Under the pieces are notes generated by a model that saw only the letters and a list, made by a program, of their open reading frames with translations, had not been told where the DNA came from and made no database searches. A stretch of DNA of 64,000 nucleotides. It comes from Phyllosticta citribraziliensis. Lineage: Eukaryota. Below, piece by piece: positions 20,172 to 29,637 of this stretch (its first letter is position 1; the number at the start of each line of letters is the position of its first letter). The stretch is taken from the NCBI RefSeq assembly GCF_038025025.1, contig NW_027117343.1, forward strand, positions 744,001-808,000, given 5' to 3'. A program made the position numbers and the translations under genes.

Positions 20172-23100
20172 TTACCGCTTTCGCTTTTGCTGCTTCTTGC
20201 CCCCGTCGTCGCTGTCGTGTCCGTCCCGGTCCTTCTGCTTCGCCTTCTTCTCCAGCTCGTCCCAGTCTTCACCCTCGCTAACCTCGCTTGCATCCTCCTC
20301 GGACCCGCTGGGCTCGTCTGATGCGTACTCGTCAAAGTCGCTCTCCTCCTCACTCTCCGACTCCGACTCGGCCAGCTCCGAATCGCTAATCTCAAAGTTC
20401 GACTCTTGCTCCTCGCTGTTTTCCTCATCTCCAGAGTCAGAGTCGGCAGCAATGAAGTTCCAACCACCATCGACAAAGAACTGGTGAGGGTCCGCCTGCA
20501 CCGTCTTCATGATGGTCGCCCAGTTGAGGTTGACGGTACCCTCCGAGAATGGAATCTCGACGCTGTCGAGCCAGTCCTTCACTGCGTCGAGCGACTCGAC
20601 GGGAATCGTATTAATGTGCACGGGAACCCTGGTGAAGTCTTTGAAGACGACCACCATATCAAAGTTCTTGAGACCGTACGACACACGTTCGAGATGCACA
20701 ATTTCAATCTCGCTGAGCGTGAGGACGAGGAACGGCGGCTCCGTGAGTTGCACGAGACAATCCGTCGTAGGCTGGATCCAAACGCTTGACCGAGACGGCA
20801 CGCCGTTGAATCCAAGATCGCGGAAAGGAATGTCGACGCCGACATTTTCATTGCGTCCAGCGTCGGCAATCTTGTCGGCGAATGCCTTGAACTCCTTGTC
20901 GAGCTGCGCACGGCGCCGCCGCTCTTCTTGCTCGGCCTCGAATTCTTCCTCGTCGCCAAACCGGTGCTTGCGCTTGCGGTTGCCCGTCTCGTCAAACTGC
21001 ATTTCCGTAGCCTCTCTGTAGAACTGGACGTCCTTGGCCTTTCGCTTGCCAATCATGATGGGGTTCTTGAGATGCACGTGGATGATGACTATCAGCTCGT
21101 GCTGGCAAGGCTGGAAGAACAAGTGCTTGATGTTGCTGAAGAGGATGTCAATCTTTTGGCCGGTGCCGTGGTTGTAGCGGAGACCATTCTGGTGGATTTC
21201 GACGGTGCCAGGCACACGTTTTCCATCCATGGCGGGACGGACGAAAATCATGTCCAACAGTGCCGGCTTGCGATCTGCATTTCATTAGCTTGACCATCCG
21301 AAATGTTCAGCATCCACTCACTCTTGACCGTAATGAGCTTGTCCTGCTCAATCACGTCCTCCATTTGCTTCTTCTCTTGCTCGCGGCGCACAGACTCCTT
21401 CTTCAACTCGGTAATCTGCTTGGCAATGTGCTCCATGCGATCAATATCACGCGACCTGAATGTCAAGCTCCTGACAAAATGGGCCGTCGGATCCTCAAAC
21501 GGCTGGTCGTCCTTGCGGCCGACACCCTGACCTGGGGACAGAAAGTTGATACGCAGCGAGGTGTATTCGCCTTCGGGGCTGTTGCTCGCGTTTTTGATCG
21601 TGTTGATGTGGAAGGGCACAGGACGGCCCATAATGGGCAGGACCACCGTCAAGTTCTTGTCATCCACGACGACCATGAGGTCCTTGACCTTGGTGGGAAA
21701 CTGGTTGTCGCGCTTGTACGACTCGAACCGCTTGAACTTCTTCTCGGTCGCGCCATTCAGATTTCCAATTTCAGCGCCATATCTTTCCAGACCCTCACGA
21801 CGCTTCTTTTCGTGCAGCTCCTTCTGGTGCTCACGTCGTGCTTCTTCCTTCTCGGCATGTTGGTTGGTCTGGCGCTCATGACGAAGCCGGGTCTTGGTAA
21901 TGTTTGCCGGGGCGACTGCACCAACGCGGGCATCCTTCTTGGCCTTGGGCTTGGATGCCTTTTCCTCTTCTTCGTCTTTAAAGAAGAATGAACAAGACTC
22001 CAGGTCAGAGGTGGAATCCCGCGTGAAGATGATGGATTCCTGCCCAGTCACACGCACAGTGTCGGTGATGATCAAGGAGTAAGTGCTGCTCTTCTTATCT
22101 TGTGGGTTGGGGTTGACCAAGTCACTGAAGCTGGTCGTGACTTGCAATGTCATGCCATCCTTGAGCTTACGGCTGTTTTTGCCGCTGAGAATTAGTTGGG
22201 TGTCCTTGAGCTCGATGCCGATGCCGTAGCCGAGATTCTTTGGGAAATGCTTCTCCAAATCTGGCTTTTTTGACTTGAGCAAACCCAGCGCCTTGTTGTA
22301 GACGTCCTTGGCGACAGCGCCGTCCTTGATATTTGCAACAACTTCCTGGTGAATCTGGCGGAGGAGCTTGTAGTTTGCTTCCTGGGACTTGTTGGGGTCG
22401 ACCATGTAGGTCCGCGCAATCATGGACGAGTAGCTTTGATACCGAAGCCCAAGTGCTGCGACAATGATTCCCGCGTGCAAGTTGTTCTTGTCCGAATCTC
22501 TTGTGAACTTGAGGTCGTAGTTTCCGCCACTCTGCACCACGGGTGGAAAGCTCCAATCCAAGTTCATGGGGTCAAAGTTGTTGGAGACCTTGAGCTTATT
22601 GAAAAACTTGTTGTCGTCCAGCTTTGTCGCAACCTTGTCCGCCAGAGCTTGATGTGTGATCTTCTTCTCGGCGTCGAGGATTTCGGACATTTCGTCAACA
22701 AAGTAGTTGGCAATGCCGCTCGATGCTTTGGAAGCGTCTCGAATGGCCCTCTGTTGTAAGCGTCAGCGGCCGCCGTCTCATCCCAACGGGTCACCTACCA
22801 GTTCCTTCTCGTCCTTAACCGACAGCGCCGAAGTAGACAGCGCCGAGGCGCAGTCGACCTCTTCAAGGTCTTTGGCAACTTCCTCGTATGACTTTTTCCA
22901 CTCTTCCACAAATGGACCGGCGGACTGATCCTTAAGCAGCACGCCGACTTTCTTGCCACCATTCTTTATGACATCGAGACACTGCTGGAACTGTTTGGCA
23001 TTCTCGTCGGCATCCTTGCCTCGAATGTGAAGCTCCACGGGCACCTTGCCACCCTTGAGCGGCTCCAGGTAGGCAGCTACATGCCATCAGCCTAAATGTA

Positions 23101-23445
23101 TAGTACCAGCGATTGTGGTCCTTACCCTTCTTCTTGGTCGTGACAATGTGGATTCCGTCGGGATTGATGACGAACAGCGTCGTAGGGAACTCGTAGCCGA
23201 GCAACCAGAGCTACAGAGTTTGCGGTCAGCGCCTTATCCGGCCATTCGCTAGATGGCAGAGCTCTCACCTGGAAAGCCACGTTTTTGGGATACGCGTTGG
23301 CGTCATTGGCTTTGCCGACGACGATGACGATGGACGAGACGCCGCCGAATATGGCGTCGCCAGAGCGCTTGTCGTTCTTCCACTGGGAAAGGAATGAGGA
23401 CAGGCGGTCGTGGAACGAGTTCTTGTCGATTGCAATGTCAGCCAT
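20172..23445 (-). CDS. SPT16: FACT complex subunit Spt16/Cdc68, ~5 exons
   Basis: [65 protein letters not shown] and an acidic C-terminal tail. Confidence 0.95.
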
Positions 23446-23890: not shown

Positions 23891-25257
23891 ATGACCTCGG
23901 TTTCCGATGGCCAAATCCCGGACTCTAGCCCGCAGGATCTCGACATCCAAGATGGGAAGAAGAAGAAGCAGCCAAAGAACAACGCCGCAACGGGCGCCTC
24001 TGCTGCCGGTATGCGCGCCGTAGCTGTGCAGTTCATGACCTTTTATTTTCGAGCCCCCATCAAGGCCTTCTTCCGCTCGCGGGTAGAGTACGTCGACAGC
24101 GCTGTCAAATCATAAAAGACCATTCACTAACTTTTGATAGCTACATGGTAAGGCCTTGAGAACGACCCCCAGCACCCCTTCTTACCGCTGCAGGCCTACG
24201 CGCGAGCCATAAACCCCGCCATACAATCAAACTTACCGTGGTCGTGGCGCTCAACCTCACCGGCAATCCTCGCATATGCTGTAAAGGAGCACGGATGGGG
24301 TTTCATACCAAACCAGGTGCTGCCGCCGATGCTGGCCAATGTCAGGTAATCCTATACTCGCGCTGAACAGAGCAGAAACTAAGCCACAGCAGCGTCGGCG
24401 CCGTACTCTATACAGCCTATCTTCAGTGTCTCGGCCATCTCCACGAACCCTCTTCCCACGCCGCCAAACGTGTATATCCCCCGGCACCACCCGCACACAC
24501 CTTTGCTGCAGGCCTTTGCGCAGGCACCATCCAGTCACTTGTTGCTGCTCCTCTTGACGCGTTGCAAGTACGCTTCCAGACATCAGACATGCTCGAAGGC
24601 CGCTACAAGACCATGTGGCAGTATGCGGGACACAAACTGCGGGAAATTGGGCTCCGTGGTGTTTTTGCCGGCTGGTCTCTTTCCCTCGTAAAGGACAGTC
24701 TAGGCAATGGCGTCTTCTTCGCCACATTCGAGTACATCAAGTCGCAGTCCTACTACAACTTTGTCAGACGCTACTACGGAGACTACGACTCGGTCTTTGA
24801 CTTTGGTCCATGGGCCAAGACGGTTCACTGGATGGACGGCGAGCGCCCAGTCATCAAACCTCACTACATGATGGAGCCAGCGTTCATTCTGACCGCAGGC
24901 ATCGCGGCGTCCATCGCTCAACAAGCCATCCAACACCCCCTGACAGAGATCCAAAATGTGCACTACAGGCGTCTCGAGAGCCTCGACTATGCCGCCCAGC
25001 AAGAGCATCGCAAGCGCTCGATCTGGCGCATGTATTACCATGCCTACGAAAAGACGTTTGAGCAATGTCGGATGCAGGCCAAGCGCACGGGCGGCTGGCG
25101 TCGCTACCTGTACCGCGACTTTCTCTCGAGCACCATTCGCCAGGTGCCGAGCACTTCCGCGGGTCTGATTGTTTTTGAAGTAGTCAGACGAAAGTACGGG
25201 TTGGTCAGCGACCCGGCGCGGATTGAAAAGGATGGTTACGATATTTTGCTCGACTGA
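23891..25257 (+). CDS. Mitochondrial carrier-like protein; 4 exons including a 7-nt micro-exon (24141-24147)
   Basis: Carrier signature-like PLDALQVRF, GVFAGWSLSLVKDSLGNGVFFATFEYIK, IRQVPSTSAGLIVFE. Introns 24088-24140, 24148-24193 and ~24346-24392 restore the frame. Confidence 0.8.
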
Positions 25258-25920
25258 TGCATTTGGTAGAGTTGAGATTTGGCGCCTGCATGTAAGAGCA
25301 TGAGGGTGAGCGTTTGCATCGCTTGTTTGTCACCATTGATTTGTCTGCATTGGGCGGCGTTTGGACGCGTGGTTTAGAGATATTTCGACGTCATAGAGGG
25401 ATTGTTTGGAGGCCGCACTCGCGGCTCGTAGACATAAACGTCTGATGCAGTTTACATGGTTAGATGTCTCTTCTCCATTCTTTCACTCCATTTTATCGGC
25501 AGAGAATCGAAGCTTGGATGGCACAGTGATTGTCAGGGAACATTTTTCCTGTTTCTTCATCTATATTCTGAGCAGTGAGGATGCGGCTTCCAAGTCGTTC
25601 TCGAGTCAGCTTGATCTGCCGTCTCCGCTCCCATATATCACGCTATTCCCGATTCGCATTACCTCTCCCAACTCCAAAGCTCTCTCGTCGTTCTGCCGTA
25701 TATGGGCCCTCGGATTTCTCTTCCCGGTCCTCTTGATTTCTGGTCACACGACGGCGACGGGCAAAGAGCAAGCTCCGGCGAAGGCGGAGCCAAAAGTCGT
25801 GGCACATGCAGTCGAAGTGGGCGAACCGGGCTCACACGTCTGTGTATCTGTTGACGGCGCGCGTCTTTCGCCTTCTCTCAAATCCCCTCGTCCCATCGAC
25901 CGCTTCCACATCAGGGACGT

Positions 25921-26280
25921 TCAAGCTCGCACAGACAACCGCCGCCACTTCTCAGCCAGCCTAGTCAATACCCACACCAGCGCCACCTCTCCCGCAACCG
26001 TTGGCGCAATCGCAACAATCATTGGGAAAAGGCCAACCACGGCGACCGGCATGAGGCAGACGCAAAAGAAGGCGGCGGTTTGGCGCGCCGAGAGAGCGTT
26101 GGTTGGGCTGCTGATTGCGGCGAGTATAATGAAGATGGGGATGAGCGCTGTGCTGAGGACGATGTACGAAGAGTAGGGGACGGGCCGGAGCATTGCGCTG
26201 GGCGGTGGTGTGTGCGAAGGTTGGATTGGCCACGGACACATGTGGGCGGAGGAGAGCGTGTCGGACATGAGCGCGGTCAT
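25921..26280 (-). CDS. Possible small membrane protein (119 aa, 2-3 hydrophobic segments)
   Basis: ATG-initiated ORF with hydrophobic stretches (YIVLSTALIPIFIILAAIS; FFCVCLMPVAVVGLFPMIVAIA; VALVWVL) and a basic tail; no homology recognised. Confidence 0.25.
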   Translation of the reverse strand: MTALMSDTLSSAHMCPWPIQPSHTPPPSAMLRPVPYSSYIVLSTALIPIFIILAAISSPTNALSARQTAAFFCVCLMPVAVVGLFPMIVAIAPTVAGEVALVWVLTRLAEKWRRLSVRA

Positions 26281-26718
26281 AGAGGGCTACGCGTTGTTGG
26301 TGGAGTATCGGCGCGCTTAAGATGACTGCAATGGTTGCTGAGCTATGAAGCCATTGAAATGCCGTGGTGGTTGAAATGGTGCGTGGTAAGAGATGTGACG
26401 TTGTTGGGCGTGTTTTCTGGACTTTGTAAGTGTTGTGGAGATCATTGGGAAGTTGGCGGCGGTGGTACTGTTTAAGAGCTGTGAGGTGATGGGTGGTTGC
26501 CGAAGAGGCAAGGTCCGGTGTTCGCGAAAGGAGTGGTGGAAAGCAGGACGGCGAGGTGGAGCTTTCGATGGACCATTCAGGAAAGACGATGATGCAGAAA
26601 AGCAAAAGGGTACAAAGAGCAGACCGTCCGCCGCAAGTCAAGAAGCAAAAAGAAACAAACCTCAAAAGACATCATCACCGCGACGCCACCACCACCAGAG
26701 AGTGCGCAGCAAAAGAGC

Positions 26719-27036
26719 AAAACTCCACCCCGGCGCGTAGGCCAGGGCTTACAAACCTTTCTCTTTCGAGGAGGTTATATAGTACAGCGTTTTTACATGA
26801 ACAGTATTACATTCCAAGCAGGAGGGCGGCGCGTACCAGACTCGAACCGGCGGCACCCTCGCAACGACGCGCCATCCATCTCCATCTCAGAAGTTATAGT
26901 ACAACAGATCCGAAATGATGGGCGGCACGTACCAGACTCGAACTGGCGGCACCCTCGCAACGACGCCCGCCCATTCATTTCGGATCCTATGTCCCCTCCA
27001 ACTGCACCACCGAAGCGGTGCAGCTGAGGGGACGAT
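26719..27036 (-). ncRNA. Candidate structured ncRNA of unrecognised family with two tandem tRNA-like (T-arm) domains
   Basis: Five consecutive hairpins or domains fold by eye, with G-U wobbles only on the minus strand. It contains UUCG and GAAA tetraloops and two 39-nt cores differing by one base. TATATAA lies 30 nt upstream and the first T4 run follows the last hairpin. Confidence 0.65.
26832..26966. repeat. Direct repeat, 2 x 39 nt (26832-26870 and 26928-26966), one mismatch, offset 96 nt
   Basis: cgtaccagactcgaac[c/t]ggcggcaccctcgcaacgacgc is present twice. Confidence 0.95.
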
Positions 27037-27059
27037 GCTAATGTTGTCACTTTCAAGGC

Positions 27060-27066
27060 TTATATA
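27060..27066 (-). promoter_or_regulatory. TATA box (TATATAA) upstream of the candidate ncRNA
   Basis: Minus strand reads CAATATATAAGCC; the first T is 30 nt upstream of the A at 27036 that precedes the 5' hairpin. Confidence 0.55.
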
Positions 27067-28096
27067 TTGAATAGGCGTAGTCACCTCCGCCTCCTGCAGT
27101 CACATCCTCAATTCTTCTCTCAACCTTCATGTCGTCCACCTGAAGCTTTGTTTGCTGCTTCATGACCTCGAAACATCCTCCATTGACAAGCCCGCAAAGC
27201 CTCTGCCTTAAAACCCCTTCGTGTTGAGACAGGATCGCTCCTCAGGTCAAAATATCAGAATGAGTAAGAAGTGGCACAGCCAAAATACCGCGTCGACCGA
27301 GACAGTGACCCGCCTTCCAAAGCCACAGACACCAGAGACAGTCTCATATGAGTCAGAGTTAGCACGTTTGACGACCGTGTCGAACAGATCGACAGTGCCT
27401 CCACAAACAGATGTCAGGGCCCTCGGCCTGTACTGCAGCAGGTGTCAAGAACATGACAGCTCCCAGGAAACAGGCGCGACGCCGAACGACAGCTCCCTGA
27501 CTGAACAAACACTTCCAAGACTTGTCGCTCGGCTGCGGCGGTAAGAGACTTCTTCATGGGCATGGCTGTAGTGATGAGGGACAGCTCTCCCAAGCCAGGA
27601 TGTGGCGCGTCTCATTGCACCTCCCACAATGCTTCTGCGCTTGACGGCATGACGAATAGATACTGGGAAATCGTGTTTGTATTGTTGCTATTTCGTCGAC
27701 ACCATACTGTAAGTTGCTCTCTCTACTTTGCATCGCTCGCAGCGAGTAAACAAATGGATAGCCAAGTGACCGCCGACCTGCGTCAGCCCTTGGCACTTTG
27801 GGTCGTTCGGGCTGCGTTGTCTTCCTGAAGGTCTTGTCGCCTGCTCTTTGCAGCAGTGACCTGCGACAGACTGCTTCCAGAAAGGGAGATATTGCAGTCA
27901 ACTGTGCTCACGAGCGCTCTGGCAGATTTTCAATCCATTGCCTAGTTGTCTTTGGCGCACAAAAGGTCGGCGATTCGTCTCCAAGGCCCTCCTCCCTCTG
28001 GCGCATAATCGACATCTTGTCTGAGTCCTTCCTCGACCGAAAATGGTTGCTCTCTCGAAGGTCGCAAATAATCTTGAAATCTTGAAGGACGCCTCT

Positions 28097-29637
28097 TCAT
28101 CTGCTCGGGGGGATCCAACCAATCTGCTCAATCGGAGACTGCACCCACACCCTGAACTCCCTCTCCAAAGACTCGTAGATGCCCGACATGAGGTGGAAGA
28201 CCCAGCCCTTGACCCACCATCTCGCCTCGAGCTCGTTCAGCAAAACGCAGAAATTTGCAAAGATGACGAGGGCGACAGGTTTTCTCTGCTGCACGCGGTC
28301 CATGAACGCTTCCGACAGACGGAAGAGCCAGACAAAGACGCCGTGCATTGGAGTCTGGCCCTCCGGGCGCTCGATGTCGAATACCAAGCTATAGCTGACC
28401 CACAGCGATGCAGCAGTCCGCTGATAAAGCTCGCAGTCGGGATCCTTTTTGACCTCGATTTCGCGCATGAGTAGTGATAGTTCCTTGAGGTGCTTGGTGT
28501 CGTCCGGTATGCTGTCCCGCTCTTCAACTTCCGAGACTCTGCGGTTGCCGGGGCATACGACAGGTGCGAGGACGCCGTGCATGAGGTCCAGATTGGCCGT
28601 GTCGACTATCAGTCTAATGGTGTGGAACAGCACCCGGTACTCGCACATGCCTTTTTCGCCGAAGATCAGATAATCACCGCGTCTGGGGCCGCGGGCCAGC
28701 GCTATGAAGCTGGCAATGACCGCGAACACGTAGAGCGCATGTCCGTTCTCGCTGTCGACATGGGCAAGGGCCGACGTGGCAGCCCGGATCGCAATGTCCC
28801 AGTGATAATCCATTTGGCGTTGAAAGTACTCCCGGCGCTCATGGTCGAATTTGGAGAGATGGATGGCTGACATTGCCATGAGACCGTGGAGCACAAATGG
28901 ATAGGAGAATCCCATTGCGGGTGCGTTGACGCGCCAAAAGTTTTGCAGTCCCGGAAGCGTGTAGAGGGTGTAGGAGGTCGAGGTGCAGTAGTTGTGAAAA
29001 AGCTCTAGCTGGGCCACATTCAATCCTGAAGATCCTTGGGCCGAGCTCAGAGTTGTTGAAGAGTCCAATTGTGGGCTTGGAGTGCTTCCAGGCGCTGTTG
29101 GAGTGTTGCCATCGGCCAAGGAAGGTTCGGTAGGCGTCAAATGATCACTTGGACTGGTGGAATTCGACGGCCCCATCGAGGCTCGAGAAGCCTGCGAGGC
29201 CGAGTGGACGAAGTCGCAGTGAATTGCATGTCGTACACAATTTGTACAACTTGGTCTTCTTTCATCGCACTGGGCCGATGATTTAGAAAAATGAAAGACA
29301 ACGCAGAGCAGATGTGCTCTTTGAAAATCAAGACTATTTCGGGACAAAGAATCAGGGAGGAGTATCAAACTTGGGCACGTTCTCAGGGATCCAGGCAGCA
29401 GCATAAAATGCGAAGGGCTTCAATGTTTACGCCCTGGAGGAGGCAACGACAAAGCAGATTTCCAAACAAGGCTGACGAAACGACGCTCGTGGACGAGCAA
29501 AAGCAAACACTCACCTTGATTCTTCTTCGCTTGCAGTTGGCACAGCCAAGGCGCGATTTGCGATGAGATCGACGCGACGAGACTTTCTTCTCAGCGTCGC
29601 TGGATGGCACCATGCTCCCGGGGTGAGATGTTGTCAT
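28097..29637 (-). CDS. Zn(II)2Cys6 transcription factor, Upc2/Ecm22-like; intron within the zinc cluster
   Basis: RRSHRKSRLGCANCKRRRIK|CDERRPSCTNCVRHAIHCDF; C-terminal LELFHNYCTST..PFVLHGLMAMSAIHL..PVALVIFANFCVLL. Confidence 0.9.

Follow-up and report, generated by a model that had tools for sequence, protein, structure and literature searches.

Background

Among the closest described systems to the locus considered here are longer non-coding RNAs that contain tRNA-like modules with reduced or missing arms, namely mascRNA and menRNA (MALAT1 and NEAT1) and the bacterial YrlA Y RNAs. A further set consists of the stem-loops in which Pus4/TRUB1 reads the motif GUUCNANNC (PMC5340967). Literature searches with printed sequence gave no match, and keyword searches on tRNA-like, TFIIIC or Pol III elements of fungi gave nothing specific in the titles and openings of abstracts that they covered. 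Nor did the papers searched yield, for any nuclear transcript of a fungus, a tRNA-like module without the anticodon arm.

A duplicated module resembling the 3' half of a tRNA is present in the stretch of DNA analysed here (64,000 nt, hereafter the window) and in close relatives; its function is a prediction from sequence.

The locus and its repeat array

Both copies of the module are on the minus strand, in an intergenic, non-coding stretch of the fungal genome that is flanked on one side by an SPT16-like gene (21248-23445, minus strand) and the last exon of a mitochondrial-carrier gene (24589-25257, plus strand; Pfam Mito_carr), and on the other by a gene for a Zn2Cys6 factor (28097-29637, minus strand). 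Read 5' to 3' along the minus strand, the order of features is a TATATAAG box, hairpin A, hairpin B, a 12-nt spacer (26904-26893), hairpin C, a degenerate third unit and a T-rich tract. Hairpin A (26991-27033, minus strand), just upstream of both copies of the module, is a near-perfect helix of 19 bp with one bulge, two G-U pairs and a UUCG loop.

The initial annotation had described two long helices ending in one shared module, and this anatomy was found as stated: GCGU, a 15-nt connector, the arm GCC[A/G]G, the loop UUCGAGU, CUGGU and ACG[U/C]. On the minus strand there are two occurrences of the 32-nt core, CGTTGCGAGGGTGCCGCC[R]GTTCGAGTCTGGT, at 26835-26866 and 26931-26962, whereas 100 shuffles gave none. 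The repeat reaches 47 nt, of which 45 are identical between the copies, and the spacing is exactly 96 nt. Copy B (26920-26966, minus strand) comprises the connector, the T-arm GCCAG/UUCGAGU/CUGGU and ACGU, while copy C (26824-26870, minus strand) has the 7-bp helix GGCGCGU/ACGCGCC stacked on the T-arm GCCGG/UUCGAGU/CUGGU. A covariance model built from the two copies (R1) finds both in the window (82.5 bits for copy B and 87 bits for copy C) and nothing else, the next match scoring 15.1 bits (E = 0.24).

By contrast, when the 49-nt flanks of one core are aligned globally with those of the other, 31 and 28 positions agree, where shuffled sequence averages 27.3 and 28.3. This edge between a near-identical core and flanks at the random level is the strongest feature within the window. 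Such a sharp boundary means that the core is constrained, that gene conversion is limited to it, or that it alone was copied; set against flanks that cannot be aligned, the near identity of the cores suggests that they are constrained or homogenised.

Downstream of copy C, a degenerate unit (26728-26823, minus strand) has lost the T-arm and keeps the 9-mer CGGCGCGTA (26731-26739), whose counterpart in copy C is exactly 96 nt away. This brings the array to three units, the last of them without a T-arm. It was not reported by Tandem Repeats Finder because the units are unlike one another outside the core. A plus-strand block, GTTATA(TA)GTACA, is also found once per repeat unit (26893-26905 and 26774-26788), at a varying offset to the core.

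Resemblance to the acceptor and T-arm of tRNA

The T-arm formed by GCC[A/G]G and CUGGU around the loop UUCGAGU has the canonical geometry of 5 bp and 7 nt, with a closing G-C pair. In copy C it stacks without a spacer on the 7-bp closing helix, after which a G comes next, and here the geometry is as originally described. The stretch likened to the variable loop, T-arm, acceptor strand and trailer of a tRNA is UGCGAGGGUGCC...ACGCGCCG. A descriptor was defined as a T-arm with at least six of seven closing pairs and a connector of 6-30 nt; its only match in the window is copy C, with a 5-bp T-arm, a 7-nt UUCRANY loop, G-C closure and a 7-bp acceptor-type stack, and no match was found in 129 kb of other fungal loci. 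Copy B has only four contiguous closing pairs, followed by a bulge and about 19 further pairs, such that the acceptor-like helix runs into a stem of roughly 23 bp. A long extension of this kind should hinder processing by RNase P or RNase Z, which argues against a simple processing signal for these enzymes.

The rarity of this geometry was gauged from 200 simulated 64-kb sequences. A T-arm-like hairpin alone is common, with five observed in the window against 2.04 expected, and the combination with at least four contiguous closing pairs is observed twice against 0.705 expected per 64 kb. With seven stacked closing pairs, the single observation compares with an expectation of 0.04 per 64 kb (8 of the 200 simulations). 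This is unusual for one window, but a genome of tens of megabases would contain many chance instances of the same arrangement.

No tRNA gene was predicted by ARAGORN in the window. Searches with Rfam detected no family at all at the gathering score, and no tRNA, tmRNA, mascRNA or Y RNA at E ≤ 10 over 181 nt of both strands. The element, which the initial annotation compared with the tRNA-like domains of tmRNA, YrlA and mascRNA, is recognised neither by ARAGORN nor by the models of these families, even at the relaxed threshold. The sequence GUUCGAGUC within the module fits the Pus4/TRUB1 motif GUUCNANNC (PMC5340967).

Folding, strand preference and substitutions

Folding energies are lower for the minus than for the plus strand in both comparisons made (-43.1 against -38.4 and -32.0 against -22.3 kcal/mol), and the three hairpins are jointly more stable than expected (z = -5.4), as is a 411-nt stretch (z = -4.0). 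The acceptor/T-arm geometry and the preference for the minus strand are real features of the sequence. The T-arm itself is absent from the minimum-energy fold, although the penalty for imposing it is small, at 0.1 kcal/mol for copy B and 0.9 kcal/mol for copy C; its pair probability (0.2-0.39 overall) is 0.35-0.39 in copy B and 0.21-0.24 in copy C. In these models the T-arm is predicted to be one among several folds of nearly equal energy.

The long hairpin around copy B (26905-26988, minus strand) is built on a perfect 12-nt inverted repeat (26907-26918 and 26975-26986), extended with two bulges, and its distal helix is strongly non-random, since none of 1000 flank shuffles folds as well. The hairpin around copy C (26812-26892, minus strand) is weaker and its distal helix marginal, being equalled by 39 of 1000 flank shuffles. 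The helix of copy B, more than 20 bp long, is made of sequence unlike that of the copy C helix. Hence the earlier observation of distal helices that differ in sequence and yet still pair stands for copy B and is marginal for copy C.

The two copies differ by two one-sided transitions, exchanging A-U for G-U and G-U for G-C. These substitutions, described as structure-preserving, keep the pairing but do not amount to covariation: no double-sided compensatory change separates copies B and C. That both transitions pair on the minus strand is weak evidence, because one of the two strands is always left with a G-U wobble when a Watson-Crick pair undergoes a transition, and the chance that both suit the minus strand is about one in four.

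Coding potential and known RNA classes

The region looks non-coding. A 61-codon ORF runs over both cores, and a coding repeat was rejected, both differences being non-synonymous and GC3 being 0.61. The nearest ORF, of 119 codons on the minus strand (26280-25921), is preceded by 12 ATGs; it has hydrophobic segments and a gene-like GC3 (0.73), reaches the threshold of no Pfam family, found no homologue when two databases were searched, and may encode an orphan small membrane protein. Nearby ORFs likewise gave neither a Pfam match nor a homologue.

Several classes of structured RNA were also considered and discarded. Telomerase RNA would be expected to carry a template-like sequence, and neither CCCTAA nor TAACCCTAA is present; U3, MRP, RNase P, SRP, the snRNAs and ribozymes gave no Rfam match; and inspection of the sequence found no ANANNA or ACA box at the places required for an H/ACA snoRNA. 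Separately, a weak match to the box C/D snoRNAs SNORD53/92 lies at 26631-26683 on the minus strand (18.3 bits, E = 1.6), in which GUGAUGA is present and UUGA replaces CUGA. It contains internal T4 and T5 runs, making it a poor fit to a Pol III product.

Variation and probable transcription in close relatives

Ten of 16 public sequencing runs contain part of the stretch, none of them recorded as RNA, and the contigs of four were compared. These are Logan contigs, which give neither the strand and level of any RNA nor its true ends. The element is covered by contigs of runs labelled as organisms B, C and E. Organism C provides a 317-nt contig over 26707-27023 with four differences. One contig of run X4 (organism B) has a single difference over the element, while that of a diverged strain in the same run has 29 substitutions and 20 gap letters within 26714-26958, and conservation of the block therefore does not extend to all relatives; this strain is about 12% different across the region, the same as in its flanks. 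The depths of X4 over the element, 71.6 and 160, together equal the flanking depth of about 225-229, hence the element is not a multicopy repeat there. A further X4 contig joins 21 nt (26710-26730) to 38 nt of core C (26826-26863) with unlike flanks, and may represent a second locus or another organism in the sample.

Organism E (run X8) is represented by a 2995-nt contig at a depth of 308 that spans 26312-27009 and continues past the T runs downstream of the array. Among the substitutions listed for it, 22 fall in 26343-26630 and two in 26631-26987 (26898 and 26927), the divergence being 7.6% to the left of the latter interval and about 12% to its right; indels are listed at 26670, 26686, 26793-26802, 26914 and 26920. 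The order of the entries suggests that the list is complete for this contig except near its ends, with the caveat that 138 rows of the underlying table lie outside the listing. The change at 26927 converts a G-U pair of copy B to G-C. The left edge of this stretch with few listed substitutions coincides with the 3' end of the C/D-like match.

The organism E contig stops sharply at 27008/9, inside hairpin A and directly against Illumina adapter, without an A-tail, and the next contig (27095-27271) has a depth of 11 as opposed to 308. If X8 is an RNA run, which is a guess, the abrupt end is what would be expected where an RNA read from the minus strand has its 5' terminus. Transcription and its strand are inferred from such features, and the locus is probably transcribed and non-coding.

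Promoter and terminator-like signals

The sequences GGTTCGAGTCT and AGTTCGAGTCT agree with the B-box consensus, GGTTCGANNCC, and keep its important positions. The 3' arm of hairpin A carries an A-box-like sequence, TGGTGCAGTTGG (27009-26998), which precedes the copy B B-box by 65 nt. Of 27 B-box-like sites this is the only one partnered in such a way, there being 102 A-box-like matches in 386,480 strand-bases, but this match was sought after the fact and has a chance of about 2-4%.

Further upstream, the TATA element TATATAAG (27062-27069, or 27061-27069 at its widest; minus strand) reads TATA on both strands. Its distance to hairpin A, which lies downstream, is 29-36 nt, and that to the contig end at 27008/9 is 53-60 nt. 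The organism E contigs end at 27009 and restart at 27095, either side of this element, and its position between the two ends suggests a divergent promoter.

At the other end of the array, two T4 runs, GGAGTTTTGCTCTTTTG (26711-26722, minus strand), lie 8 nt past the acceptor-like ACGCGCCG of the third unit and are a possible Pol III terminator. There is a T5 run at 26651 and no T4 run inside 27033-26723. The minus strand downstream of the array is T-rich, however, and T4 runs are therefore to be expected there anyway.

Search in more distant material

The core pattern has no matches in collections of metagenome, prokaryote or viral contigs. In the metagenomes, 19 loci with an orthologous carrier gene (48-72% amino-acid identity) keep the SPT16-carrier synteny, with SPT16 upstream. 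A blastn comparison of these loci with 25258-28096 of the window found nothing similar (best E 0.41), and tblastx of their downstream parts against the window identified only an SPT16-like piece. The 19 loci contain no descriptor match and no tRNA gene, leaving neither them nor the window with a candidate for a parent tRNA gene. The covariance model, proposed in the initial annotation for a search of fungal genomes, recovered both window copies but nothing in these syntenic fungal loci (best E 5.2). As neither the 19 loci nor the three collections hold a match, the element appears restricted to a narrow lineage, with none beyond close relatives in the material searched. In one metagenome locus, a short second SPT16-like fragment was seen downstream of the carrier gene (L001, 8132-8206).

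Proposed origin and role of the array

The explanation we tentatively prefer, while regarding it as far from secure, is that a module derived from a tRNA gene has been kept as a T-arm or minihelix element of a non-coding RNA, with or without a B-box function. The two copies would belong to the tandem array of three units with a 96-nt period, and the 47-nt core would probably descend from the 3' half of a tRNA gene, its parts being a variable-loop-like GUGCC, a T-arm that doubles as B-box, a 7-nt 3' acceptor strand and a G discriminator. With a complementary 5' strand closing the core, the minus-strand RNA could fold into an acceptor/T-arm minihelix that has neither a D arm nor an anticodon arm. 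The array would sit in the 5' part of a lineage-restricted non-coding transcription unit running leftwards on the minus strand from about 27033-27008. The core may have been kept by factors that read T-arms, on the RNA side enzymes of the Pus4/Trm2 type or elbow- or minihelix-binding factors, and on the DNA side TFIIIC via the B-box; it would then be a structural or recognition module rather than a decoding tRNA. A more specific version would have a lineage-specific fungal RNA of about 310-390 nt (minus strand, from 27033/27008 to about 26720-26631) present two tandem minihelices as a bivalent mimic of the tRNA top half, which might serve enzymes that bind the elbow or T-arm as a decoy or scaffold, with the cores also forming an internal B-box promoter. 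This we consider quite improbable as it stands; if true, it would be a eukaryotic counterpart of the bacterial tRNA-like Y RNAs.

The same elements might instead act at the level of DNA, the cores being TFIIIC B-boxes, either as chromatin-organising sites of the ETC type or as the internal promoter of a Pol III gene for a non-coding RNA of about 310-385 nt, with the RNA hairpins secondary. The retention of the key positions of the B-box consensus in both copies, the A-box-like sequence 65 nt upstream at one of 27 B-box-like sites, a TATA element at about -30 relative to hairpin A, and T4 runs 8 nt past the last acceptor-like strand with none inside 27033-26723 are all consistent with this. Yet the identity between the copies spans 47 nt, far beyond an 11-nt B-box, and is flanked by inverted repeats; with a start at 27008/9 the A-box-like motif would span -1 to +11, which is too near; and the X8 contig continues beyond the T runs. 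Together with the after-the-fact choice of the A-box match, at a chance of about 2-4%, and the T-richness that makes the T4 runs expected, these points leave a purely DNA-level role rather unlikely. A similarly low probability is given to a functionless relic, a tandem-duplicated fragment of a tRNA gene or pseudogene whose cores would owe their likeness to a recent duplication or to conversion in short tracts, with the hairpins as by-products. Gene conversion over short tracts could indeed hold the cores alike without function, in the material searched the element is found in close relatives only, the degenerate third unit demonstrates that units do decay, and the diverged X4 strain differs across the element by about 12%, as in its flanks. 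The copies also differ at two positions only, both transitions without covariation, and a geometry expected at 0.04 per 64 kb would recur by chance genome-wide. Uniform neutral decay of a 96-nt duplication, however, does not account for a 96%-identical core with random-level flanks and exact 96-nt spacing, nor does a relic sit easily with a helix of more than 20 bp in copy B made from sequence unlike copy C, or with the scarcity of organism E substitutions, among those listed, in 26631-26987, an interval bordered by divergence of 7.6% on its left and about 12% on its right.

An origin as a mobile element (SINE, MITE or Helitron 3' end) is the least convincing of the alternatives and seems very improbable. 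A B-box-bearing, tRNA-like sequence is typical of SINE heads, terminal inverted repeats surround copy B, and the X4 contig joining 38 nt of core to 21 nt of 26710-26730 with unlike flanks possibly marks a second locus. GATG, CTAA and T come in turn after hairpin A on the plus strand (27033-27042), in the manner of a Helitron 3' end, a likeness that is probably due to chance because the depth of the locus in the relative equals that of its flanks. The same X4 depth argues against a SINE or MITE, as do the presence of only two copies in 64 kb, where the next model match scores 15 bits, and the lack of a target-site duplication flanking hairpin B. Moreover, MITEs conserve their ends and not their middle, and the core has no match in any collection scanned.

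Comparison with known systems

Were the preferred reading, a tRNA-derived minihelix element kept in a non-coding RNA, correct, the locus would provide a fungal example of a tRNA-like module without an anticodon arm, and of a tRNA-gene fragment recruited into a new non-coding RNA. If it is wrong, the locus shows tRNA 3'-half geometry and a short conserved tandem core mimicking a structured RNA.

Like mascRNA, menRNA and the YrlA RNAs, the module is tRNA-like, has missing arms and lies inside what is apparently a longer non-coding RNA. Unlike them, it belongs to a fungus and is present as two tandem copies near the apparent 5' end rather than as one at the 3' end, there is no Rfam match, and neither a triple-helix element nor a Ro-binding stem was seen at the locus. 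ETC sites and the A/B-box leaders of yeast RPR1 and snR52 share with it a B-box that is not part of a tRNA gene, with a possible A-box before it and T runs after it, whereas the fungal module is conserved over 47 nt and has pairing biased to the RNA strand.

In comparison with the acceptor/T-arm minihelix of tRNA itself, the absence of D and anticodon arms, with a 15-nt connector in their place, sets the module apart, as do its invisibility to ARAGORN and to the Rfam tRNA model and, in copy B, a closing helix of four pairs, a bulge and about 19 further pairs. The likeness lies in the 5-bp T stem, the UUCGAGU loop and a G-C closure corresponding to tRNA positions 53/61, together with the 7-bp helix of copy C stacked without a spacer and followed by G. 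Finally, the module resembles the mRNA substrate hairpins of Pus4/TRUB1 in placing the motif GUUCNANNC within a stem-loop, which here is a motif prediction (PMC5340967).
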